Counted from the stretch's first letter, positions 2,400-16,007 are shown. The stretch is 64,000 nt of DNA from an uncultured Candidatus Bathyarchaeia archaeon (GCA_964527165.1 CAZGNE010000006.1:1601-65600), one strand, 5' to 3'. Notes: generated by a model not told the origin, from the sequence alone. Numbers and translations are program-made.

Positions 2400-5300
2400 T
2401 TGAAATTGGTTGAAGTCTTAAAGGAAGATACTCATCTTATGTTGAAGTCATTCTTTAGAACGAAAGGACTTGTCCGCCAACATCTAGACTCTTTCAACGA
2501 GTTTATAGATCATGGACTACAAGAAGTGATAGACGAAATCAGCGAAATACCAATAGAAGTCCCCGAAAACCCGTACAAAGTGAAGCTTGGTCAAATATGG
2601 ATAATTGATCCACAAACAAGAATAACCGGATCTTACGTGACCGAGGTAGACGGTACAAAACATGAGATCTACCCACTCGAAGCAAGACTTAGAAACCTAA
2701 CCTATGCAGCACCAATAGCACTTGAAATGACGCCAGTCATAGATGGCAGAGAACAAGATACAGAACTAGTTTACATAGGCAATATCCCAGTTATGCTTAA
2801 ATCAAAACTGTGCTTCCTCTCTCAACTCTCACGAGAAGAACTGATAGCCTGTGGAGAAGATCCCGACGATCCTGGCGGATATTTCGTAGTAAATGGCTCA
2901 GAACGTGCAATAGTCGCCATGGAAGATTTGGCTCCCAATCGTGTTATAGTGGACGTAGATGATAAAGGTGCCACACCTGTATATCAAGCTAAAATATTTT
3001 CCACAACAGTTGGCTTCAGAGCAAGAATAGAGTTAAAAATCAAGGCAGATGGAGCCATATACGTATCAATACCAGGCGTACCAACAGAGATCTCCTTTGT
3101 AGCTTTAATGCGTGCTCTAGGCTTGGAATCAGATAAGAATATTGCCGAAGCAGTTTCCCTTGAGAAAGAAATTCAAATGAAACTAAATCCTTCTTTTGAA
3201 AAAGCCTTAGGGATAGATACTCCAAAAGACGCAATCCTTTTCATCGGAAATCGTGTTGCTCACGGTCAAGTAGAAGAATACAGATTGCAGAAGGCCGAAA
3301 CTGCGATAGACAAGAACTTTTTACCCCACATTGGCAGAACCGCTCAGAATAGGGGAGACAAAGCCCTGTTCCTCGGTGAAATGGCCTGCAGAGCTGTAGA
3401 ACTAGAACTCGGAAGAAGAAAGCTTGACGACAAAGATCATTTTAAGAACAAACGATTGAGGCTTGGAGGTACATTGCTTGCGGATCTTTTCAGAGTGGCC
3501 TTCAGAAATCTTATCAGAGACATAAAATACCAGCTTGAACGGATAGGCGTGAAAGGTCCTATAATAACTGTTTCCGCCGCCGTACGACCGGGAATAATTA
3601 CTGAGCGATTTCAACACTCGATTGCTACAGGAAATTGGGGAAGAGGAAGAGTTGGCATAACTCAGCTTTTGGATAGGACAAACCATATTTCAACTCTTAG
3701 CCACTTGAGGCGACTTCAGTCGCCATTAAGCAGAAGCCAACCAAACTTCGAAGCAAGAGACTTACATGCTACCCATTGGGGGCGTCTATGCCCAAACGAG
3801 ACACCTGAAGGATCGAACTGTGGACTAGTTAAGAATTTGGCACTGTCCGCCTGTATTTCAGTTGGGGTAAATCCAGATAAGATAAAGCAGATGCTTACAG
3901 GCATGGGATTGATCCCTGTATACGAAGCAAACGAAATATTAAGGCTTTCAGGCACTAAAGTTTTCATAGACGGAAACATTGTTGGCTATTGTAACACTCC
4001 TGAAGAAATGACGAAAAGGTTTAGAGAAAGGCGCAGAAGAGGAGAAATTTCGACTGAGGTCAACATAGCCTATTTCTCAAAGACCCAAGGTGAAAGAGAA
4101 GAAATAGATGTCAACGCCGACGAAGGAAGAGTCAGACGACCCCTCATAATTGTCGAGAACGGTGCTTCAAAATTCCAGCCAGAACACATTGAAAAAATAG
4201 TTTCTATGGAATGGTCATGGGAAGACCTAGTCAAAAACGGTATCATAGAATACTTAGATGCTGAAGAAGAAGAAAACGCGTACATAGCATTGAAAACTGA
4301 GGAAATAACACTAAACCACACTCATTTAGAAATCGCGACATATACAATTTTTGGAATTTGCGCTTCAACAATTCCCTATGCCGAACACAACCAATCACCA
4401 CGTAATTCCTACCAAGCCGCAATGGCAAAACAAGCCTTAGGAGTTTATGCTACAAACTTTCAGCAACGGGTAGACTCCAGATCACACATTCTACATTATC
4501 CACAAGTGTCCATAGTTGAAACAGCTTTGATGGAGACAATGGGTTACAAGCTTCGCCCCTCTGGACAAAACTGTATAGTAGCAGTGCTCTCCTATGAAGG
4601 TTACAACATGGAGGATGCTATAGTCTTCAATAAAGCCTCGATAGAAAGAGGATTAGGACGCTCAACTTTCTATAGGATATACGAGGCTGAATGTCGTCAA
4701 TACTTAGGAGGATTGAAGGACAAATTCATCTTGCCAGAGCCTGGAACTCGGGGGTTCCGTGGAGAACAATATTATAGATTACTTGAACCTGATGGGATAA
4801 TCAGCTTGGAATCAAGCGTTACAGGAGGAGATGTTCTAATCGGCAGGATCAGTCCGCCGAGGTTTCTAGAAGAATACAAGGAATTCGAAGTAAAGGGACC
4901 GTCAATGCGTGACACATCTGTAGATATGCGACCTTCTGAAACGGGTATTGTCGATGGAATTTTCATAACAGAGTCAGGGCAGGGAAGTAAACTCGTAAAA
5001 GTGAGAGTTCGCGACCAACGTATTCCCGAGTTAGGCGACAAGTTTGCCTCTCGCCATGGGCAAAAAGGCGTCATAGGCTTAATTGTCCCGCAAGAAGACC
5101 TGCCATTTACAGAAGACGGCATAGTCCCAGACATAATAGTCAATCCTCATGCTATTCCTTCAAGAATGACGATTGGACAATTCATTGAATCATTGGCAGG
5201 AAAACTTGCTGCCATTAGAGGGAAGCCGGTTGATGGAACACCTTTCTCAAATGAAAGTTCTGAAGAAGTTAGAAAAGCTCTCATCAAGCTGGGCTTCAGC

Positions 5301-5771
5301 CATACAGGCGCAGAGGTTTTTTACAATGGTGTAACAGGCGAAAAATTCGTTGCCGACATCTTTGTTGGCATTGTTCATTACCAGAAATTGCACCACATGG
5401 TTGCTGATAAGATTCATGCTAGAGCCCGCGGACAAGTACAAATGCTAACAAGGCAACCTACAGAAGGAAGAGCAAGAGGAGGAGGTCTACGATTCGGCGA
5501 AATGGAACGCGACTGTCTTATTGGACATGGAGCCGCAATGCTTCTCCGTGACAGACTTCTAGAAGAATCAGACAAATACACACTTTACATTTGCCAAACT
5601 TGCGGCCATATCGCGTATTATGACATGAAGCAAAGAAAACACACGTGTAGACTCTGCGAAGATAGAGCTAAGATATCCCCAGTAGTAGTCTCTTATGCTT
5701 TCAAGCTTCTTCTACAAGAGCTAATGAGTCTCTGCATAGCGCCTAAACTGAAATTAAAGGAGAAAGCATAG
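2400..5771 (+). CDS. rpoB: DNA-directed RNA polymerase subunit B (unsplit)
   Basis: 1123-aa ORF with TTG start. N-terminus FFRTKGLVRQHLDSFNEFI, motif GLRFGEMERDCLIGHGAA, C-terminal Zn ribbon CQTCGH...CRLCE. Confidence 0.97.
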   Translation: MKLVEVLKEDTHLMLKSFFRTKGLVRQHLDSFNEFIDHGLQEVIDEISEIPIEVPENPYKVKLGQIWIIDPQTRITGSYVTEVDGTKHEIYPLEARLRNLTYAAPIALEMTPVIDGREQDTELVYIGNIPVMLKSKLCFLSQLSREELIACGEDPDDPGGYFVVNGSERAIVAMEDLAPNRVIVDVDDKGATPVYQAKIFSTTVGFRARIELKIKADGAIYVSIPGVPTEISFVALMRALGLESDKNIAEAVSLEKEIQMKLNPSFEKALGIDTPKDAILFIGNRVAHGQVEEYRLQKAETAIDKNFLPHIGRTAQNRGDKALFLGEMACRAVELELGRRKLDDKDHFKNKRLRLGGTLLADLFRVAFRNLIRDIKYQLERIGVKGPIITVSAAVRPGIITERFQHSIATGNWGRGRVGITQLLDRTNHISTLSHLRRLQSPLSRSQPNFEARDLHATHWGRLCPNETPEGSNCGLVKNLALSACISVGVNPDKIKQMLTGMGLIPVYEANEILRLSGTKVFIDGNIVGYCNTPEEMTKRFRERRRRGEISTEVNIAYFSKTQGEREEIDVNADEGRVRRPLIIVENGASKFQPEHIEKIVSMEWSWEDLVKNGIIEYLDAEEEENAYIALKTEEITLNHTHLEIATYTIFGICASTIPYAEHNQSPRNSYQAAMAKQALGVYATNFQQRVDSRSHILHYPQVSIVETALMETMGYKLRPSGQNCIVAVLSYEGYNMEDAIVFNKASIERGLGRSTFYRIYEAECRQYLGGLKDKFILPEPGTRGFRGEQYYRLLEPDGIISLESSVTGGDVLIGRISPPRFLEEYKEFEVKGPSMRDTSVDMRPSETGIVDGIFITESGQGSKLVKVRVRDQRIPELGDKFASRHGQKGVIGLIVPQEDLPFTEDGIVPDIIVNPHAIPSRMTIGQFIESLAGKLAAIRGKPVDGTPFSNESSEEVRKALIKLGFSHTGAEVFYNGVTGEKFVADIFVGIVHYQKLHHMVADKIHARARGQVQMLTRQPTEGRARGGGLRFGEMERDCLIGHGAAMLLRDRLLEESDKYTLYICQTCGHIAYYDMKQRKHTCRLCEDRAKISPVVVSYAFKLLLQELMSLCIAPKLKLKEKA

Positions 5772-5772
5772 C

Positions 5773-8700
5773 ATGGCATTAGAAGAAATAATCCATAAAG
5801 TCGTTGACGAAATCCATTTTGGCTTATTCTCACCTCAAGATATCCGAAAACTTTCTGTGGTGGAAATTCAAACACCAGACACATACGATGAAGACGGCGC
5901 ACCAATCACCGCAGGACTAATGGATGGTAGACTTGGAACGCTTGAGCCTAGACAAAGATGCCGAACTTGTGGCAACACAGCCATTAGATGCCCAGGTCAT
6001 TTCGGTCACATCGAGCTCGCAGTCCCAATAATACATATTGAATTCACAAAAATAATACATGACCTTTTAAGGGTTACTTGCCGAAACTGTGGTCGCATTT
6101 TGCTTCCCGATGAGACAGTGAAAAAGGTACGCACTAGAACTGATAGGACTCGTCAACTTCTAGGCTTAGTTCCAGACGATACTTACAAAGTGATTTTTCA
6201 AGAAGCAAAAACCAAGCAATGCCCTCATTGTGGAGCTGCTCAGAACAAAATAGTCTTCGAAAAACCTACAAGATTCAATGAGCAAATTCCCGAAAGCGGA
6301 TCAGAACCATTAACGCCGAGCATGGTTCGAGAAAGACTAGGACGCATACCTGACGAGGATTTTGAAGTTCTAGGGTTCAACCCACGAGCCGCACGTCCTG
6401 AGTGGATGGTCTTACAAGTAATACCAGTCCCCCCAGTGTATGTCCGACCCTCAATAACTTTGGAATCAGGCATACGTTCAGAAGACGACTTAACCCATAA
6501 ACTGGTAGATATAATACGCATCAATCAAAGGCTAAAAGAAAACATGGACGCTGGGGCACCTACACTCATAATTCAAGATCTATCCGAGCTTCTGCAATAC
6601 CATGTGACGACATATTTCAATAACGAAGCCTCGGGAATTCCGCCTGCAAGACACCGCTCTGGTAGAGCATTGAAAACACTATCACAAAGATTGAAAGGAA
6701 AGGAAGGAAGGTTCAGAAGCAACCTTTCGGGAAAAAGAGTTGATTTTTCAGCCCGCACCGTCATTTCTCCTGACCCGAACTTGGACATTAGTGAAGTCGG
6801 TGTTCCCCTGGAAGTTGCAGTACGCTTATCTATGCCTGAGAAAGTTACTGAATGGAATATCAAAGAAATGCGAAAATACGTCAGCAATGGACCTGAAAAA
6901 TACCCAGGCGCCCTATACATTATCAGACCTGATGGCAAACGAATAAGGCTCGAGTTTGTCGTTGACAGAGAGAAAATAGCTGAAGCTGTGGAACCTGGCT
7001 ACATTGTTGAAAGGCACCTTAAGAATGGGGATATAGCCATTTTCAACCGTCAACCTTCACTCCATCGCATGTCTATAATGGCACACTACGTCCGTGTTCT
7101 TCCATACAAGACTTTTCGCTTACACCTATGCGTATGCCCGCCCTACAACGCAGATTTTGACGGAGATGAAATGAACCTGCACATACCACAAAGTGAAGAA
7201 GCACGGACAGAAGCTCTTCTATTAATGCAGGTTCAAGACCAGATACTTTCACCCCGATTTGGCGGACCAATAATAGGTGCAATCCGAGACTTCATAACAG
7301 CCGGCTATCTTTTCACAAGAAAAAGCAACTACTTAAGCCAATACGAAGTTAACAGACTATTGCTTGGAGCAGGATATGATGGACCGTTACCTGAGCCCAA
7401 AATCAGAGAACCTCAACCCCTTTGGACAGGCAAGCAAATTTTCAGTTTATTCCTTCCAAAAGACATGAACTACGTCCTCAAAGCAAGCATTTGTCAAGGC
7501 TGTGCAAAATGTGAAGAAGAAAACTGCCCTCACGACGCATATGTCATTGTCAAAGATGGCGAGCTTATTAGCGGAGTTATAGATAGACGTTCAATAGGTG
7601 CAGAACAGTCTGAAAGCTTACATCATAGAATAATAAAGGACTATGGAACGCAAACTGGTCGGGAATTTCTGAACAAAATAACTCACCTACTGAAGCTTTT
7701 CATAACTATGCGAGGCTTCACATACTCCTACGAGGAGCTCGTTTTATCAGCCAAAGCCGAAGACAGAATACGAAAAACCATGGAAAGAATCGAAAAGAAG
7801 ATACTTGAACTAATAGATAGCTACAGTAAAAAAACACTTGATAGACTTCCAGGTCAAACTTTGGAAGAGTCTTTGGAAATCTATGTAATGAGCGAACTGG
7901 CAAAAGCCAGAGATGAATCTGGAAAAATCGCTGATGAAGACTTCACCCTTGAAAATGCAGGCATCGTAATGACCCGCACTGGTGCCAGAGGCTCAAACCT
8001 AAATATCGGTCAGATCAGCGCATGTGTAGGGCAACAATCAGTTCGAGGAAAACGAATACTTCGAGGATATTTGGACCGTGCATTGCCACATTTCAGGGCA
8101 GGTGACGCAACTCCCAAAGCGAGAGGGTTCGTCTATTCCTCATATCAAAAAGGACTTGATGTCATCGAATTCTTCTTCCACTCAATGGGCGGTCGAGAAG
8201 GACTTGTTGACACAGCAGTCAGAACACAGCAAAGCGGATACATGCAACGAAGACTCATTAACGCGCTTGAACACATACGGATGGAATACGATGAAACCGT
8301 CAGAAACTCAGCAGGAGATATAATCCAGTTCCAGTACGGCGAAGACGGAGTTGACCCTGCAAAAAGTGATCATGGAAAAGCAGTCAACGTGCACCGAATA
8401 GTTGACCAGATGAAACTAGCCAAAGGAAAAGGCAACCCTGCTCTAGCTGACCACATCAAGAAACGATTGAAAGAAGTTGAAGACAAGCTCACACCCATTT
8501 TAATGGAAGAACTTAAACAGGAACTGACCAGAGCAAACCTTAGATCATCAACCGTTGATAATGCAGTCCAGCTAACAGTCGAACACTACAAACGTGCGCT
8601 AATGGAGCCCGGCGAAGCTGTTGGCATAGTTGCGGCTCAATCAATTGGCGAACCTGGCACCCAGATGACCCTTAGAACATTTCACTATGCTGGAGTTAGA

Positions 8701-9597
8701 GAACAAAACGTGACTTTGGGCTTGCCGAGATTGATAGAAATTGTGGACGCTAGGAGATTTCCTTCTACACCAATAATGACGATTTACCTTGATGAGAACC
8801 ACAGAAAAAGCAGAGAAGATGCGGTAAAAATTGCACGAAACATAGTTTTCACGACACTGGAGAATTTGGCTAGAGCAATTTATGAGGACCCGTTGCGAGA
8901 AGAGATAATAGTAGAGCTTGCCGAAACCATGATGGAAGATCGAGAGGTAACAATGGATGAGTTAAAGGGTTCGCTGCAGATACCAAATTGTGTAATTAAA
9001 GCTAAGAGCAATAGTTTGCACATTAAGCCTAAAAAGGCTGATACTCTGAAAAAAATGCTTGATAAAGTTTCATCCTTCCACGTTAAAGGGGTTCCTGGAA
9101 TTAAACGTGTGTTGGTTACTGAAGAACGTGGAGAATGGGTTATCAGAACAGATGGCTCGAACTTGCCAAGAATCTTGGAGATTTCAGGTGTAGATACTTC
9201 GCGGACAACCACAAATAATGTTCATGAAATAGCGAAAACCCTTGGAATAGAGGCCGCTCGAAACGCCCTTATTCATGAAGCTAGAGGCGTTTTGGAAGAC
9301 CAAGGATTGGACGTGGATGTTCGTCATGTAATGCTTGTTTCAGACATGATGACATCTACAGGTGAAGTTCAACAAATAGGCAGACACGGTATTAGTGGCA
9401 AGAAATCAAGTGTCTTGGCTAGAGCTGCTTTCGAGATTACTATTCCGAACATTGTTGAAGCAGCAGTAAAGGGAGAAAATGACCCATTGGCAGGCGTGAC
9501 CGAAAACGTAATAGTAGGGCAATCAATACCCATTGGTACAGGGCTTGTAGAACTGTACATGTCAACGTTTGAACAAGAAAAGGAGAGGAAAAAATGA
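5773..9597 (+). CDS. rpoA: DNA-directed RNA polymerase subunit A, A' and A'' fused in one ORF
   Basis: 1274-aa continuous ORF starting 1 nt after the rpoB stop. Zn-binding N-terminus CRTCGN...CPGHFGH, catalytic NADFDGDEMN, and the A''-type segment AAQSIGEPGTQMTLRTFHYAG in the same frame. Confidence 0.96.
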   Translation: MALEEIIHKVVDEIHFGLFSPQDIRKLSVVEIQTPDTYDEDGAPITAGLMDGRLGTLEPRQRCRTCGNTAIRCPGHFGHIELAVPIIHIEFTKIIHDLLRVTCRNCGRILLPDETVKKVRTRTDRTRQLLGLVPDDTYKVIFQEAKTKQCPHCGAAQNKIVFEKPTRFNEQIPESGSEPLTPSMVRERLGRIPDEDFEVLGFNPRAARPEWMVLQVIPVPPVYVRPSITLESGIRSEDDLTHKLVDIIRINQRLKENMDAGAPTLIIQDLSELLQYHVTTYFNNEASGIPPARHRSGRALKTLSQRLKGKEGRFRSNLSGKRVDFSARTVISPDPNLDISEVGVPLEVAVRLSMPEKVTEWNIKEMRKYVSNGPEKYPGALYIIRPDGKRIRLEFVVDREKIAEAVEPGYIVERHLKNGDIAIFNRQPSLHRMSIMAHYVRVLPYKTFRLHLCVCPPYNADFDGDEMNLHIPQSEEARTEALLLMQVQDQILSPRFGGPIIGAIRDFITAGYLFTRKSNYLSQYEVNRLLLGAGYDGPLPEPKIREPQPLWTGKQIFSLFLPKDMNYVLKASICQGCAKCEEENCPHDAYVIVKDGELISGVIDRRSIGAEQSESLHHRIIKDYGTQTGREFLNKITHLLKLFITMRGFTYSYEELVLSAKAEDRIRKTMERIEKKILELIDSYSKKTLDRLPGQTLEESLEIYVMSELAKARDESGKIADEDFTLENAGIVMTRTGARGSNLNIGQISACVGQQSVRGKRILRGYLDRALPHFRAGDATPKARGFVYSSYQKGLDVIEFFFHSMGGREGLVDTAVRTQQSGYMQRRLINALEHIRMEYDETVRNSAGDIIQFQYGEDGVDPAKSDHGKAVNVHRIVDQMKLAKGKGNPALADHIKKRLKEVEDKLTPILMEELKQELTRANLRSSTVDNAVQLTVEHYKRALMEPGEAVGIVAAQSIGEPGTQMTLRTFHYAGVREQNVTLGLPRLIEIVDARRFPSTPIMTIYLDENHRKSREDAVKIARNIVFTTLENLARAIYEDPLREEIIVELAETMMEDREVTMDELKGSLQIPNCVIKAKSNSLHIKPKKADTLKKMLDKVSSFHVKGVPGIKRVLVTEERGEWVIRTDGSNLPRILEISGVDTSRTTTNNVHEIAKTLGIEAARNALIHEARGVLEDQGLDVDVRHVMLVSDMMTSTGEVQQIGRHGISGKKSSVLARAAFEITIPNIVEAAVKGENDPLAGVTENVIVGQSIPIGTGLVELYMSTFEQEKERKK

Positions 9598-10586: not shown

Positions 10587-11198
10587 TTAGCAGCATCCTT
10601 TTTTGAGAATACACAGTTTCCTGCTTCCAGTGAGGACTACTTGTTCAGGGGTTTTCAGAATCGTTTTGCCATTATGCGATAAAAAGACTTTGTCTGTAGA
10701 CCTGTAAATGAGTTTGTTGTTGTGGGCAATGAGAACATCAAGCTTGCTGGATTTGTTTGGAAATGCAAAGATAATGCCGTGTTCATGGTCACATGAGTTG
10801 CCGCGTATACCTATTTTCCTGAAGAACTGTGTACATAATTTTTCAGCTTCGACCATGAACGCTTTTTCGTTTTCATAACCTGTTTTCTCGCAATCTTCAT
10901 TATCTGCTTCAATAAGGTGTTGCTGTACTCCATTTATGGGACCAAGCATTAGAAAGGGTTCTTCCACCTCTTTATCTTCTGGTTTGCCAACCGCGCCTTT
11001 TTCAGTTTCTACGATAGTGTCCAAGATTAGTCTGCCTTGTCCATGAAATATGAAGCCCCTTTGTTCATTATCTAGCATTATTGGGATAGCTAGAGCGTCT
11101 TTGCCAATCTCCACGATTCCTTTTTCCGTTTTCCATAGTATTATAGTTCCTGTTACTTTAGAGATGTTGCTGCCTAATCTATAGTTTTGCCAGATCAT
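10587..11198 (-). CDS. hypothetical protein
   Basis: 203-aa ORF. 4-nt overlap with the upstream ArsR-like gene, so probably operonic. No recognisable motif. Confidence 0.5.
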   Translation of the reverse strand: MIWQNYRLGSNISKVTGTIILWKTEKGIVEIGKDALAIPIMLDNEQRGFIFHGQGRLILDTIVETEKGAVGKPEDKEVEEPFLMLGPINGVQQHLIEADNEDCEKTGYENEKAFMVEAEKLCTQFFRKIGIRGNSCDHEHGIIFAFPNKSSKLDVLIAHNNKLIYRSTDKVFLSHNGKTILKTPEQVVLTGSRKLCILKKGCC

Positions 11199-11755
11199 TC
11201 GGTGTTCCCTCTTTCAATGAATTTTGTGATTCGGGTTGCCATTTTGTAGGCCGTCCTGCCGGGCATAGTGATCAGATAGCGTCCTCTAACTTTTTCTTGA
11301 ACGACCAATCCAGCTTCTTCCAGCACTTTTAGATGGCTTGAAAGAGTGCTTCCTGTAATGTCTGAGAGCTTCCCTTGAAGTTCGTTGACATATTTGCCAC
11401 CGCTAACAAGCTCTTTCAATATTCCGAGTCTATGTTCCTGACCTAATGCACTCATAATCTGTGCAGTTCTTGGAAGATCGATGTCTGCTTCTTCAGGTTC
11501 TTTACAAGGCTCTTTATTTCCTCTGATTATCCTTACTCCTCTCGGACCGATAAAGATGGATTTCTCTAGCTCACCGTGAATGCCTTCTGCTACGCTTTCC
11601 ATAACATCTCCCATGTAGTCTTGAACGCGGTTGCCAACGTCGATGTATATACCTTGCCTTCTTCTTTCTTTTTCCGTCGCATTCCAGAGTTGCTCCTTCA
11701 TTTTTGACATTTCTTCTCGAAGTTTCTTAATTTCTTCCTTCACATCTTCAGACAA
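11195..11755 (-). CDS. ArsR-family winged-helix transcriptional regulator with N-terminal coiled coil
   Basis: 186-aa ORF. C-terminal half LGQEHRLGILKELVSGGKYVNELQGKLSDITGSTLSSHLKVLEEAGLVVQEKVRGRYLI is a typical ArsR/SmtB wHTH. A TATA-like AAAGTATATATC lies upstream on the minus strand near 11826-11840. Confidence 0.75.
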   Translation of the reverse strand: MSEDVKEEIKKLREEMSKMKEQLWNATEKERRRQGIYIDVGNRVQDYMGDVMESVAEGIHGELEKSIFIGPRGVRIIRGNKEPCKEPEEADIDLPRTAQIMSALGQEHRLGILKELVSGGKYVNELQGKLSDITGSTLSSHLKVLEEAGLVVQEKVRGRYLITMPGRTAYKMATRITKFIERGNTE

Positions 11756-11887: not shown

Positions 11888-12463
11888 CTATTTTGACAAC
11901 ATCAGGCTTATGAGCTCCTTCGTGTCTACTTCCGCGCGAGTTCTCCAATCCACGTACAATTGTTCATTTTCATCTTGTGCCAAATATCCATAGCGTACAT
12001 AACGGTCGATGTTCAAGCCAACTCTCCATCCTGGAAGTTTGTCGTGGAGCACATCTTCAACTTCTTTCCGTGGAGCTTTACCTTTTTTCGAAATAATGTG
12101 AGATATTGTTATTGCTAATCCTGCAAGGTCGTCTATCCGCCATCCAATCATCTTGGTTTCCTTCGGCGTCAATTCTCCCCTCAACGTTATGTAAAACCTG
12201 GCTTTATCCAATTGCTCCAAACTTGGCTTCTCGATTGCCTTTTCTTCTTCATGAACTATTTTAACTTGTAAATCCAGTGCTTTCAGGTAACCATCCAAGA
12301 TTTTCAACACTTTCGGGTAGTCTGAGCCTAGGGCTTTTCGAAGCTCCCAGCCTTTCACGCCGGGTTTTACGTGTTTCTTGAAGAAGAGCATGTGTGTTGC
12401 CCGTTTTAGCTTGCTTGCGTAGACTGCTTTTCTTCTGCTCATTTGAAATCTCCTCTCTTCCAT
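11888..12463 (-). CDS. tandem winged-helix kite-like protein (ScpB / Nse3-MAGE-like), SMC-operon partner
   Basis: 191-aa ORF. The likelier start is the ATG at 12442 (MSRRKAVY), forming an ATGA overlap with the upstream gene stop. Two WH-like halves. The C-terminal LYVDWRTRAEVDTKELISLM resembles the MAGE-homology YEFLWGPRAxxETSxxKVL pattern. Confidence 0.55.
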   Translation of the reverse strand: MEERRFQMSRRKAVYASKLKRATHMLFFKKHVKPGVKGWELRKALGSDYPKVLKILDGYLKALDLQVKIVHEEEKAIEKPSLEQLDKARFYITLRGELTPKETKMIGWRIDDLAGLAITISHIISKKGKAPRKEVEDVLHDKLPGWRVGLNIDRYVRYGYLAQDENEQLYVDWRTRAEVDTKELISLMLSK

Positions 12464-13266
12464 CGCGCCCAGTCTTCCATTGAAACTGCTATTGGCATGG
12501 AAACTAACTGTTTCTTACTGATTTTTGTCTCAGGGCTTTCATTTGGTCTGATATAGATTTTTTCTTCCAAAGGATAAATTTCCAAGGCAGCGTACCCATA
12601 AGTGATTAGGAAACTTGTCATGAACGCTCTTTGGGCTGTTCCCTCGTAGGTTTCAGCTCCCACAAAATCCCAGTACGATACTTTTCCCTTTTCACCCTTT
12701 TCTGTCACAAAAGTTTTCAACTCATGCCAAAAAATCTCCAAATCTTCCGAAAAGGCTTTCTTCTGTAAAATTTGCTGTTGCACCAGCTCTTCTACAGTGG
12801 CAGAACCTGCTGCAACTTCTTCGGGTAATGATTGATTCCATCTTTCATTCATGGGCAACAGGTTGATCCAGTATGCAGTGGCTTCTGCCAGACTATGTAG
12901 TGAGATTTGTTCCAATTCCAGTATTGGATGCCACACTTGGACAAAGATTCCAATGATTTCTTCCTTTGGCAAACTCAGAATTTTTTCTTCCAGCAGGAAG
13001 GGATCGGTGTAAAGAGATGTTGAACGGTGTTTTACCCATTCGCTCTGAAGCTTGATTACTGACGCTAGATGATGAATCGTTTCAGCGTCTAAGCATAGGT
13101 CTTCGGGAAGGTTCCACTCTGAATAGTAATCCTTAATCGTTTTGATGTTTTCGCCTACATCTATCAGGAAAGGATCAAGTGAACGTTCTTCAATTGGTTT
13201 GCATATTTCGATTATTCGCTGGAGTTTCTGTCTTCCTATTTTCTCTCGTTCTCTTTTCGACTGCAC
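12439..13266 (-). CDS. kleisin-like protein (ScpA/Nse4-like)
   Basis: 275-aa ORF. GTG start overlaps the TAG of the SMC-like gene by 1 nt. The C-terminal AQRAFMTSFLITYGYAALEIYPLEEKIYIRP resembles the ScpA C-terminal winged helix. Size is typical of prokaryotic kleisins. Confidence 0.55.
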   Translation of the reverse strand: MQSKREREKIGRQKLQRIIEICKPIEERSLDPFLIDVGENIKTIKDYYSEWNLPEDLCLDAETIHHLASVIKLQSEWVKHRSTSLYTDPFLLEEKILSLPKEEIIGIFVQVWHPILELEQISLHSLAEATAYWINLLPMNERWNQSLPEEVAAGSATVEELVQQQILQKKAFSEDLEIFWHELKTFVTEKGEKGKVSYWDFVGAETYEGTAQRAFMTSFLITYGYAALEIYPLEEKIYIRPNESPETKISKKQLVSMPIAVSMEDWARWKRGDFK

Positions 13267-15230
13267 TATGATACCTCTCTGATTATGGATTTGCCTTCGA
13301 TGTTTTGAACGGTGATTATGGTGATGCTTTCCTTTGCAAATGTTATTTGGCTCGGTGTAATTACCATATATTGGGCGTTTGCGTCATTTACTGTTGAAAT
13401 GAGCATTTTTGCGATCAATTCACGGTTTTTTGGGTCCATGTGGACATCATATTCGTCGACTGCTCGAAAAGGTGAACGGACATGTTGCTGTAAAGCTAAT
13501 AGAAAGCTCATTGTGGCTGTTGTTCTTTCTCCGCCACTTTGAGTGTAAGCATCTAGAGGAACGGGTCTGCTGCCCTTAAATCCTACGAGAATCTCTAATC
13601 CAGCAGCTTCTATGTCGTGCTCGTGCACAAGTCTAACTTCTCCAATCGCCTGTGTTTGCATTAAAATCCTTTGGTATGCTAGGTTTGCGCGTTCCAACAT
13701 GCTTTGTATTACTGTTCGCCATGCCTGCATTCGTATTTTGACTTCTTCCAGGGTTTTTTCACGATTTTCCGCAACCAATTGTGCCTTTTCTTTAAGTTCT
13801 AAGTAGAGTTTTGAATAGGATTCGTACATTCTTTCTATGTCTTCTGAAACATCAGTAAGGGCAGCTAGATGACCTTCTATAACTCTCATCTCGTCAAGAA
13901 TCTCGCCTGCGCTTTTTAGAATTGCGATTCTTGAGCCTGTCTGTTCTGCTTTGCTTATGACTTCGTCTAAGTGTTTCTTTTCCGTTCCCAATTCTTTTTC
14001 GAGTTTCTCTATGTCAGCTGTCGCATTTTCTTCGCGATATTGCAGTAGTGCTAGCTTTATTCGAATCTCTAAAATCTGATTGCCCACTTTTTCAACTTTT
14101 TCCTCGACGTCTCTGATTTTCATCTGGTTTTCGTTTATTTTAATGTCTGATTCTGATAGCTGTTGGCTTGAGTTTTGTACTAATTCCTTCAAATTTTCGC
14201 TTCTCAAAAGCTTGAGCTGTACTGTGTTCTGGTCTACTTGCTGATTTATGTTAAGAGATGAATTTCCACGGCTTAGACTGGTTTGTTCTAGCACAGCCGT
14301 TTCTTTTAGCAACTGCTGACACAATGATATCTTGGATTCGTTTCCAGCTTTTTCGCGTTCGAGGCTTAAGCGTTCGTCAAAAAAAGTTTTTCCCTCATCC
14401 TTCAGTTTTTGTAGTGTATTCCGCTGGATATGCAGAGCATTTTTCGCGTTTGTTGCTTCTTCCTCTATATGACCTAGAATTCCTTGCAGTTTTTTTCTTT
14501 CGCCTTCCATTTCTTTGAGCATGTTTTCTCTGCGGATAACTTCTGCCCATGCAAACTCTCGCTCCAGGAATCTTCTTTTTGCTGAAAGCTGTTTTTTCTC
14601 TTGAAAACGGTCGTACTGCTCTCTCCAATAATTGAGCGTTTGTTCTGCAGATTCCAAAAGTTTGCTCATAGATTCTTCTTGGCTCAGGGCACGAGTCAGC
14701 TTTCTTTGTGCCTGCAACACGTTTTCCCGATAGGCTTCAAGCCCAACTGCTGACTCGACAATTCGCAATTTTTCGTGCATAGAAAGCACTGTGAATTGTT
14801 CAACCATGTTTTGATGCATTATGATTAGTATGTTATCCGGATCAACGCCCAATCTAGATAAAAGCCTGCAAACATCTTGTTTTGTAGCAGCCCTATTTTC
14901 GAGCTCAGACCAGTATTTACCATCCCGCCGCAAAACGCGTGTGAGAAAGATTTGGTCCTTATTGTATTTTGAAACCGGTCTGTTCTGTCCTTTTTTAGTA
15001 TTGTCCAAAACTAGTGTAATGCGGGCTTGGTCTTTTCCCCAGCGGATTAAATCGCTCAGCTTCCGTGAGCGCTCAGTATAAGATTGTCCTAATGCCACGG
15101 AGATTGCGAGTAACAGCGATGATTTTCCAGATCCATTAGGTCCGCAGATAACGTTTACGCCAGATTTGAAGGGTACTCTGGCATACTCGTAGCTCATGAA
15201 GTTCTCCAAGATTACTTCCTGAATCAACAT
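13266..15230 (-). CDS. short SMC-like ABC ATPase without hinge (SMC5/6- or ASRP-like)
   Basis: 654-aa ORF. Walker A GPNGSGKS (aa 30-37), ABC signature SGGERT, Walker B/D-loop FRAVDEYDVHMD. A heptad-rich E/K/L/Q middle of about 330 aa has no hinge domain and no CxxC hook. Confidence 0.8.
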   Translation of the reverse strand: MLIQEVILENFMSYEYARVPFKSGVNVICGPNGSGKSSLLLAISVALGQSYTERSRKLSDLIRWGKDQARITLVLDNTKKGQNRPVSKYNKDQIFLTRVLRRDGKYWSELENRAATKQDVCRLLSRLGVDPDNILIIMHQNMVEQFTVLSMHEKLRIVESAVGLEAYRENVLQAQRKLTRALSQEESMSKLLESAEQTLNYWREQYDRFQEKKQLSAKRRFLEREFAWAEVIRRENMLKEMEGERKKLQGILGHIEEEATNAKNALHIQRNTLQKLKDEGKTFFDERLSLEREKAGNESKISLCQQLLKETAVLEQTSLSRGNSSLNINQQVDQNTVQLKLLRSENLKELVQNSSQQLSESDIKINENQMKIRDVEEKVEKVGNQILEIRIKLALLQYREENATADIEKLEKELGTEKKHLDEVISKAEQTGSRIAILKSAGEILDEMRVIEGHLAALTDVSEDIERMYESYSKLYLELKEKAQLVAENREKTLEEVKIRMQAWRTVIQSMLERANLAYQRILMQTQAIGEVRLVHEHDIEAAGLEILVGFKGSRPVPLDAYTQSGGERTTATMSFLLALQQHVRSPFRAVDEYDVHMDPKNRELIAKMLISTVNDANAQYMVITPSQITFAKESITIITVQNIEGKSIIREVS

Positions 15231-15358
15231 TGATGGCTTTGCCTCTTATTGAAGGCATAAATAGGTGAAAAACTCTTATTAAAACAATTGGGACATATTC
15301 TTTTATAATTAGGTGTAGTTTCTCGTTTTCTTTTCTTGATTAGTTTGACGCTTTCCAC
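15224..15358 (-). CDS. possible 44-aa basic Cys/His mini-protein, or the tail of a decayed gene, overlapping the SVC-like start
   Basis: GTG ORF read by hand: (M)ESVKLIKKRKRETTPNYKRICPNCFNKSFSPIYAFNKRQSHQC, with CxxC...HxC. Its stop overlaps the start of the SMC-like gene by 7 nt. The same frame is open upstream without a start codon. Confidence 0.2.
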   Translation of the reverse strand: MESVKLIKKRKRETTPNYKRICPNCFNKSFSPIYAFNKRQSHQC

Positions 15359-15679
15359 ACCACATACGCGTTCGAGCCTGTTTTCTACTAGTGCTTTAGC
15401 TTCATCTGCGGTTTCAGTGGTTGCAGAAGGATACCCATCGTTTCCAAGATCTACCAGCTGCGTGTAGATTAAAGCTTTCTGGAAGGTTATACAAAAGGCT
15501 TAACGCGTATCTGTCCAATTTTCTCGGCGATTTCCTTGAGAAAAGTTTTATCAAAACGCTGTTTCAGAATTTCTTCTATTTTTCAGACTTACACTGTTGA
15601 CGGCGTTGTCTGGCTTGCTTGTTTTCCAGCAGAGCGTTGGCGCCGGGCTTTGTAGGCGGCTTCTGAGGGAACAGTATGG

Positions 15680-15933
15680 GCGCAGCGCCTGCTGTTCAGG
15701 TAACGTTTCTTTGAATATATTTTCAAAAATACATTTCCCAGAGCGCTCCATTATTGCTCTGCTTCTGCCAAATCATCTAGCATCATATTGATAAATATTA
15801 GGCACACATAAGAAGTCAAGAGCTAAGCGTATTGGAGGATCTGTAGCTCATTAAAGTCGGCTATTCGCCTGTAAAGAGAGGTATCGAAAAACTGCGAACT
15901 TCAGTTAGAAATGTGACAATAGTAATCAAGTAA
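15680..15933 (+). pseudogene. decayed paralog of the small ArsR-like wHTH genes at 26872..27159 and 30082..30360
   Basis: Hand translation ...AHIRSQELSVLEDL*LIKVGYSPVKRGIEKLRTSVRNVTIVIK* aligns with ...SEAYISQEVRRLEDLKLIKVSYAPGKRGIRKICELAVQKISIIIKK*. Has an in-frame TAG plus upstream indels. Nucleotide similarity continues into the 3' flank. Confidence 0.7.
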
Positions 15934-16007
15934 TAGGTGGGGTCTACCTATGCAACTTCGGCAGACTACTCAGAGGAGGTAGAATAATCAAGAAAGCTAT
16001 GCCTCCA

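Follow-up and report, generated by a model that had tools for sequence, protein, structure and literature searches.

A short-armed SMC5/6-related ATPase encoded with Nse4-like and Nse1/Nse3-like partners in Bathyarchaeia

Organization of the three-gene locus

The window analyzed here is a stretch of 64,000 nucleotides from an uncultured Candidatus Bathyarchaeia archaeon (GCA_964527165.1, CAZGNE010000006.1:1601-65600), and positions are counted from its first letter unless another locus is named. [quoted passage not shown] Open reading frame (ORF) calling in the window found the three overlapping minus-strand genes at the lengths given there (654, 275 and 191 aa):

13266..15230, minus strand: ATPase ORF, 654 aa, ATG start; SMC5/6-related by score, short-armed, hinge-less; Pfam SMC_N match at 2e-37
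12439..13266, minus strand: kleisin ORF, 275 aa, GTG start; Nse4-like
11888..12463, minus strand: kite ORF, 191 aa, ATG start (184 aa if started from Met8 at 12442); Nse1/Nse3(MAGE)-like

The ATPase stop and the kleisin start form TAGTG and share 1 nt at 13266, a TAG/GTG overlap that the earlier note had seen. For the second junction it had proposed coupling through an ATGA. The kleisin stop TGA (12441–12439) does lie inside this ATGA (12442–12439), but the ATG is Met8 of the 191-aa ORF, that is, the start of the 184-aa form; the ORF's own start is at 12463, giving a 25-nt overlap with the kleisin gene. The NCBI annotation uses shorter starts, yielding an ATPase of 643 aa from Met12 and a kite of 184 aa from Met8. 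We favor the longer starts for both proteins because homologues conserve the longer N-termini, MLIQEVILENF in the ATPase (15198–15230) and ME..R in the kite (12442–12463).

The ATPase has a split ABC head with SMC5/SMC6 affinity

The ATPase carries the split ABC head of SMC proteins, with Walker A in the N-terminal part and the signature, Walker B and D-loop in the C-terminal part. All motifs quoted in the earlier note were present, and their core residues were invariant in a set of homologues from nine lineages that are overall 34–43% identical to the window protein:

15120..15143, minus strand: Walker A/P-loop GPNGSGKS, residues 30–37; 7 of 8 residues invariant in the nine lineages, position 34 being S or A
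13521..13541, minus strand: ABC signature QSGGERT, residues 564–570; S565–R569 invariant in the nine lineages; aligns with QSGGER of SMC5
13434..13469, minus strand: Walker B and D-loop FRAVDEYDVHMD, residues 588–599; followed by an SMC5/6-type ITP motif at 624–626

Residues D592, E593, D595, H597, D599, T625 and P626 were likewise invariant in the nine lineages. Two stretches of the C-terminal head have counterparts in yeast and human SMC5: PFRAVDEYDVHMD aligns to PFRVVDEINQGMD, and QYMVITP to QYF(L/F)ITP.

When the protein was compared with NCBIfam models, SMC models came first (7e-47; SMC_prok_A, 160 bits), followed by Rad50 (2e-23), RecF, ASRP and RecN; the ASRP model NF045487 reached 53.4 bits against a cut-off of 300. 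The Rad50, RecN and RecF models scored far lower than the SMC models. Searches of the PDB put SMC5 or SMC6 first among all solved structures in every comparison. With the single sequence, SMC5 was matched at 2e-29 versus 4e-26 for Pyrococcus Smc, and with the C-terminal head alone SMC5 was matched at 2e-18 and human SMC6 at 6.5e-12 versus 1e-8 for Pyrococcus Smc. A profile of nine diverse members returned only SMC6 and SMC5 among its top ten matches (4e-66 to 9e-59), with Pyrococcus Smc at 8e-56, SMC2 at 2e-48 and Rad50 at 4e-16. Judged by hidden Markov model (HMM) score, the head is thus closer to SMC5/SMC6 than to canonical Smc, as the earlier note had proposed. This affinity agrees with published phylogenies, where an "SMC5/6-related aSMC" clade includes sequences from Bathyarchaeota (PMC8665677, PMC9389158).

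More than 4000 homologues of the ATPase were found, the best 120 of which were all 637–703 aa long, so the short length of the window protein is not a matter of chance.

The arm is a short coiled-coil hairpin without a hinge domain or zinc hook

AlphaFold2 modelling of the ATPase, based on 54 homologues, gave a helix at residues 165–320, a loop at 321–335 with a pLDDT (predicted local distance difference test score) <50, and helices at 336–341, 344–431, 441–457 and 464–529. The arm helices had a pLDDT >90 over ~170–310 and 345–510. Together they form a coiled-coil hairpin of ~155–165 residues per strand, corresponding to ~23–25 nm, with a 15-residue apex loop. Its parts are encoded as follows:

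14271..14738, minus strand: N-terminal arm helix, residues 165–320, of which 165–235 form a conserved head-proximal "neck"
14202..14270, minus strand: apex, residues 321–343; variable loop and short helix at the hinge position, pLDDT <50 for 318–340
13644..14201, minus strand: C-terminal arm helix, residues 344–529, with joint-like breaks at 432–440 and 458–463

Pfam SMC_hinge had no match in the ATPase at E<=1. A search for CxxC found none in 69 SMC-type ORFs, taken from the fetched loci and the window, nor in nine diverse homologues. With the modelled loop between continuous helices, these negatives bear out the earlier claim that the protein has neither a hinge nor a CxxC zinc hook. The claim that the arms would be one third of canonical length did not hold: B. 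subtilis Smc has 344 residues per strand (PMC5344682), and the strands here reach ~45–48% of that, or about half. One third is the proportion in the shortest relatives, with ~119 residues per strand. Across the ATPase family the arm had 119–165 residues per strand, and in the nine lineages 238–331 residues separated two invariant head anchors. Two features of a strictly defined SMC protein are therefore absent from this one, a hinge dimerization domain and an arm of ~45–50 nm (~340 residues per strand).

In an alignment of Bathyarchaeia sequences, the heads, the head-proximal coiled coil and the joint-like breaks had entropies of 0.30–0.53, with 36–54% of their residues invariant, and the distal arm was variable (1.18). 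The apex block, residues 316–343, had the highest entropy of the whole ATPase (1.97, against 0.30–0.34 for heads and neck), no invariant residue, and insertions and deletions. The apex is also the site of length variation between ATPase lineages. The spot where a dimerization module would sit is the most weakly constrained part of the protein.

The two partners resemble Nse4 and Nse1/Nse3

For both partner proteins, PDB searches with single sequences or shallow profiles returned only noise, and profiles of diverse homologues were needed. The earlier note had described the 275-aa protein as a kleisin ending in a ScpA-like winged helix. The kleisin assignment with a C-terminal winged helix stood, but its likeness was to Nse4 rather than to ScpA:

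12463..12657, minus strand: kleisin C-terminal winged-helix region, residues 204–268, Nse4_C-like

Pfam Nse4_C matched the window kleisin at E 0.003 and all 54 of 54 close homologues, at best with 4.8e-5, all of these matches being below the Pfam curated cut-off. A profile of 11 kleisins from different lineages, 20–29% identical to the window protein, matched yeast Nse4 at E 2.1e-5 over residues 270–350, the C-terminal winged helix; human NSMCE4B/EID3 followed at 0.065, and nothing else was significant. No ScpA family of Pfam was matched at E<=1 by the kleisin or its homologues. Conservation between lineages also extends over the first 130 residues of the kleisin (DPF..DV, D60, Q74). These matches support the assignment of the 275-aa protein as a putative kleisin of the Nse4 type.

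The 191-aa sequence by itself and its close homologues gave no match, in Pfam either. An exhaustive search of 1.84 billion representatives with this protein gave 117 kite clusters. A profile built from 33 full-length members, 28–74% identical to the window protein, was run against the PDB and matched Xenopus Nse3/MAGE (7dg2_C) at 2.3e-4, human MAGE-G1 (5hvq_D) at 1.5e-3, NSMCE3 (9lwi_E) at 6e-3 and NSE1 at 6-8e-3. The top match of this profile, a designed repeat protein, was discarded as an artefact of its repeats. Pfam SMC_Nse1 was matched by 8 of the 33 members (best 4.7e-6) and MAGE by two, and no ScpB family was matched by the kite or its homologues at E<=1. The order of helices and strands in the AlphaFold2 model fits two winged helices, the first of them confidently modelled and residues 101–191 with a pLDDT <50; an hhalign comparison of the two halves, as an internal repeat, gave E 0.3. 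Since the protein contains no cysteine, it has no RING. These similarities at the level of sequence support the earlier reading of an Nse3/MAGE-like protein, here a putative kite of the Nse1/Nse3 type.

The triad is conserved across Bathyarchaeia and in distant lineages

Searching species-representative genomes with the kite pattern gave 563 relatives. Of these loci the best 80, all Bathyarchaeia-type, were compared, and their ATPases were 67–82% identical to the window protein. ATPase, kleisin and kite genes were contiguous in 73 of the 80, which are all those whose contig reaches far enough, one insertion apart. This insertion, in locus L019 (6310–9986), places 3.7 kb between kleisin and kite and is the sole break among the 73 loci with all three genes; among its products are secreted or membrane proteins, a subtilase and a helix–turn–helix (HTH) protein. 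None turned up when viral contigs were scanned for such loci, and a metagenome scan returned one locus. One locus, L065 (DASPTR010000042.1), is labelled Candidatus Acidoferrum, a bacterium, but its proteins of the archaeal triad are 69–74% identical, so this contig was probably mis-binned.

Eight further triads were obtained from kite groups that are only 29–40% identical to the window kite. All had short ATPases of 561–663 aa, 34–43% identical to the window ATPase and differing from it chiefly in the length of the distal arm:

L081: ATPase 643 aa, metagenome contig
L082/L083: ATPase 574 aa, Thermoprotei metagenome-assembled genome (MAG)
L086: ATPase 629 aa, Conexivisphaerales
L087: ATPase 663 aa, Nitrososphaerota MAG
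L088: ATPase 570 aa
L089: ATPase 593 aa
L090: ATPase 561 aa
L091: ATPase 630 aa

The named sources among them are Nitrososphaerota or Thermoprotei MAGs. Because these distant triads also carry short ATPases, the short, hinge-less form is the norm for this ATPase family in Thermoproteota and not a truncation or the oddity of a single clade. Conservation of the triad in relatives, which the earlier note had proposed to check, therefore holds both within and beyond Bathyarchaeia, and the triad is a vertically inherited housekeeping complex.

Two further arrangements were seen outside Bathyarchaeia. In four lineages an Lhr-type helicase gene of ~950 aa (DEAD, Helicase_C, WHD_Lhr and DEAD_assoc domains) lies directly after the kite gene, in convergent orientation:

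Lhr-type helicase: L081 8507–11383; L086 5569–8406; L088 5521–8373; L089 5518–8382

The 64-kb window contains no such helicase. At three other loci, L084 and L085 (7300–8567) and L092 (4315–5579), kleisin-like and kite genes follow directly after cysS, with no SMC gene within 5–8 kb; the kleisin–kite pair can thus be detached from the ATPase in some lineages.

Promoter and genomic setting

The operon has a promoter of its own, conserved among the compared loci:

15258..15292, minus strand: operon promoter, B recognition element (BRE)/TATA-like cCTAATTG(T/C)TTTAATAAGAG, with a GAGG-type ribosome-binding site nearer the ATG

Comparison of the loci gave the BRE/TATA-like consensus cCTAATTGyTTTAATAAGAG upstream of the ATPase gene. 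Of 66 Bathyarchaeia loci, 65 contain TTTAATA, in most cases 51–69 nt upstream of the ATPase start, and a Shine–Dalgarno-like GAGG is found upstream of the ATPase at the same frequency (65/66). The triad is one transcription unit of three translationally coupled genes. In 47 of the 66 loci CTCTAT follows TTTAATA after 8–9 nt and makes an imperfect palindrome with AAGAG, which could be an operator.

Upstream of the promoter, ~700 bp of non-coding sequence (15293–16007) extend to a glycosyltransferase gene. Wide conservation in this gap is limited to the ~60 bases adjoining the ATPase start (15231–15292), and Rfam and tRNA scans of the 780-bp region upstream of the operon gave no match.

The window is otherwise ordinary core chromosome. 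Two large ORFs lie at 2400–5771 and 5773–9597, the latter with motifs of the RNA-polymerase largest subunit; this gene is one 1274-aa ORF and is not split into A' and A''. The flanking core genes include rpoB, rpoA, L30e, a NusA-type gene, cysS, glnA and polB, of which the L30e-like and NusA-like ORFs were assigned by eye. Besides the glycosyltransferase, the window encodes Mrp-type membrane subunits, a P-type ATPase, CysRS, glutamine synthetase and a family-B DNA polymerase. No canonical long SMC was found within the 64 kb. On the same strand after the triad, 10587–11755 encode an ArsR-type HTH protein of 186 aa, whose N-terminus is a coiled coil, and, overlapping it, a 203-aa ORF without a family. 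These two were ruled out as members of the operon, being behind the triad in only 12 of the 80 loci.

Published relatives and comparison with known systems

The earlier note had implied that the complex was new, but the family is already published (PMC8665677; 10.1101/2024.01.07.573240). Yoshinaga and Inagaki (2021; PMC8665677) defined the SMC5/6-related aSMC, mostly in TACK lineages including Bathyarchaeota, and 44 of the 80 genomes encoding it also hold a canonical SMC. van Hooff, Raas, Tromer and Eme (bioRxiv 2024, v2 2025; 10.1101/2024.01.07.573240) described many archaea with two complete SMC–kleisin–kite operons; one of the two, seen in TACK and Asgard archaea, is SMC5/6-related and combines a kleisin related to Nse4 with a kite related to Nse1/3. 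In their Table S3, Bathyarchaeia genomes appear with Nse4-related and Nse1/3-related genes side by side, most rows also having a ScpB-like kite. The example listed for the SMC5/6-related operon is Bathyarchaeota E29_bin60 (genes SOJC01000029.1_1-3), and a Bathyarchaeota example with both operons is given as well. The triad described here shares with these operons its family, gene order, single strand and occurrence in TACK archaea including Bathyarchaeia, and we see no difference in kind. No further paper on archaeal SMC5/6 came up in literature searches.

Word searches of PMC8665677 and of the van Hooff text and supplements found no mention of the arm length or the missing hinge, nor did the other papers found mention either. 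A literature search for hinge-less SMC proteins returned only an unrelated actinobacterial marine clade (PMC12153180). In the phylogeny of Yoshinaga and Inagaki the coiled-coil positions were removed, leaving 263–293 head positions (PMC8665677), and such head-only phylogenies have so far hidden how strongly the archaeal proteins differ from SMC5/6 in structure. Hinge-less sequences may also have been missed by a survey of arm lengths in natural SMC proteins, in which head and hinge regions were located by alignment (PMC5344682).

Among known complexes the eukaryotic SMC5/6 core (Smc5–Smc6, Nse4, Nse1–Nse3) supplies the best solved-structure relatives of all three proteins. Shared motifs are QSGGER, PFR(A/V)VDE..D..MD, ITP and the Nse4 C-terminal winged helix. 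In contrast to the eukaryotic complex, the triad has one SMC gene, whose product is presumably a homodimer, in place of Smc5 and Smc6, and one kite gene, without a RING, in place of Nse1 and Nse3. The operon lacks Nse2, Nse5 and Nse6, and the unit has no further conserved gene; the ATPase differs in its arms of ~23 nm and in having no hinge domain.

Smc–ScpAB has the same SMC–kleisin–kite logic and operon organization, and the triad presumably likewise assembles an SMC homodimer with a single kleisin and a dimer of the kite. However, its Smc has ~1170–1190 aa, 344-residue arms (~47 nm) and a hinge (PMC5344682), and the partners of the triad match neither ScpA nor ScpB. With no ScpA or ScpB family among the Pfam matches at E<=1, the complex is distinct from canonical Smc–ScpAB, as the earlier note had suggested.

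The ASRPs (coalescin ClsN, Sph1/2; PMC9389158) are likewise archaeal SMC-superfamily ATPases of ~600 aa with a short coiled coil. Most of them have a zinc hook at the apex and they form a separate clade (PMC9389158), whereas the triad ATPase has no CxxC and is encoded with a kleisin and a kite. Finally, an engineered Mini-Smc and an Smc carrying the Rad50 zinc hook showed that SMC proteins can still function with much shorter arms, in certain windows of length, and that the dimerization domain's fold is interchangeable (Burmann et al. 2017, PMC5344682). A dimerization domain was always retained at the apex of these constructs, and none is recognizable in the triad ATPase.

Alternative explanations

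An SMC-like anti-plasmid or anti-phage system of the Lamassu or Wadjet kind, with the short-armed ATPase as sensor of foreign DNA and a partner carrying out the defence, is the least improbable alternative, and we consider it very unlikely. The ATPase matched the PADLOC models mad3 (1e-25), LmuB (4.8e-18, over nearly its full length) and JetC (3e-10). LmuB-type proteins are short-armed SMC-like ATPases as well. Eukaryotic SMC5/6 is reported to restrict extrachromosomal DNA (PMC10586767). However, the SMC5/SMC6 scores were far above the PADLOC scores, neither kleisin nor kite matched any PADLOC model at E<=1 (the defence partners being LmuC, JetA and JetB), and no nuclease or other effector gene such as LmuA or JetD was found in or adjoining the operon. 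Defence systems are patchy and fast-evolving, whereas at least 563 species genomes have the triad, its gene order is fixed, its ATPases are closely similar among the best 80 loci, its promoter is conserved, and the viral contigs contained none.

Even less probable is that the protein is a repair or segregation ATPase of the Rad50, RecN, ASRP or coalescin type whose neighbours are unrelated to kleisins and kites. Its 654 aa and short coiled coil do resemble ASRP (~590 aa) and RecN, the NCBIfam ASRP model matched it end to end (residues 18–601, 1.6e-14), and Rad50 models reached the value given above. The ASRP score nevertheless remained far below its cut-off and that of SMC_prok_A much higher, with SMC5/6 at the top of the PDB matches; no Mre11-type gene is adjacent, and the neighbours match Nse4 and Nse1/Nse3, their family profiles matching no Rad50 partner.

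The least probable alternative, that the genome has no ScpA and ScpB other than the two small genes, which would serve a distant canonical Smc, and that the short ATPase is a separate or degenerate paralogue, finds a parallel in the three kleisin–kite pairs after cysS. However, the 275-aa and 191-aa proteins and their homologues matched Nse4_C, SMC_Nse1 and MAGE instead of ScpA or ScpB families at E<=1, the ATPase is translationally coupled to the kleisin and contiguous with it in each of the 73 Bathyarchaeia loci with sufficient contig and in the eight distant triads, and the notion is contradicted at class level by the separate ScpB-like kites in most Bathyarchaeia genomes of Table S3, one of which has a complete second operon.

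A model for a short-armed archaeal SMC5/6-related complex

We thus take the triad to be the Bathyarchaeia version of the archaeal SMC5/6-related complex, and put the probability of this reading, including the way of working proposed below, at about 0.8. Several points weigh against it. The ATPase heads were poorly modelled by AlphaFold2 (pLDDT ~30). The kite model had a mean pLDDT of only 57.8, from a shallow alignment of sequences 79–84% identical to the query, with a poor second half, and Foldseek on this weak model gave a best E of 0.13, the list including JetB, Nse1 and MAGE-A11, none of them significant. The margin of SMC5/6 over archaeal Smc in the full-length HMM comparison was only ~10 orders of magnitude. 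The presence of a canonical Smc–ScpAB alongside comes from class-level literature data, the 64-kb window holding none; the function and stoichiometry of the archaeal members are transferred by analogy; and apex-to-apex dimerization of the ATPase is possible.

By analogy with known SMC complexes, two ATPase subunits would engage their heads around two ATP, a single kleisin would link one subunit's neck to the other's cap, and a kite dimer would sit on the middle of the kleisin. DNA may be clamped above the heads once these are engaged, to be released or moved by ATP hydrolysis. Because no part of the ATPase is less conserved than the apex, the dimer is most likely held by the heads and the kleisin, perhaps with arm-to-arm zipping, without a dedicated dimerization domain. 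If closure were by heads and kleisin, DNA would be held in a kleisin–head compartment rather than in a hinge-closed ring. The complex probably works beside canonical Smc–ScpAB. A role in DNA repair or junction handling like that of SMC5/6 is plausible but weakly suggested, by the SMC5/6 analogy and by the convergent Lhr-type helicase after the kite gene in four other lineages. The action on extrachromosomal DNA that the earlier note had considered found no support.

As an archaeal relative of SMC5/6, the family bears on the origin of the eukaryotic chromosome machinery, a point already made in the published work. What is added here is that the ATPase has arms of about half the canonical length and neither hinge nor hook, and yet a conserved ATPase head, neck, joint and both partners, and that this is general across the sampled lineages. 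A bolder proposal, which we hold tentatively and at somewhat below even odds, is that the SMC5/6-related complexes of Thermoproteota are natural hinge-less SMC machines with arms of 18–25 nm and an unconserved apex, closed only by ATP-engaged heads and kleisin. If this is true, closure at the hinge would be dispensable for an SMC–kleisin–kite complex, and the hinge of SMC5/6 would have come from an archaeal lineage that kept it or would have been regained, or the short form would be a derived state of TACK archaea. A small three-gene, hinge-less complex of this kind would be a convenient minimal system for asking which steps of SMC activity, such as DNA clamping, kleisin gating and translocation, need a closed arm compartment.

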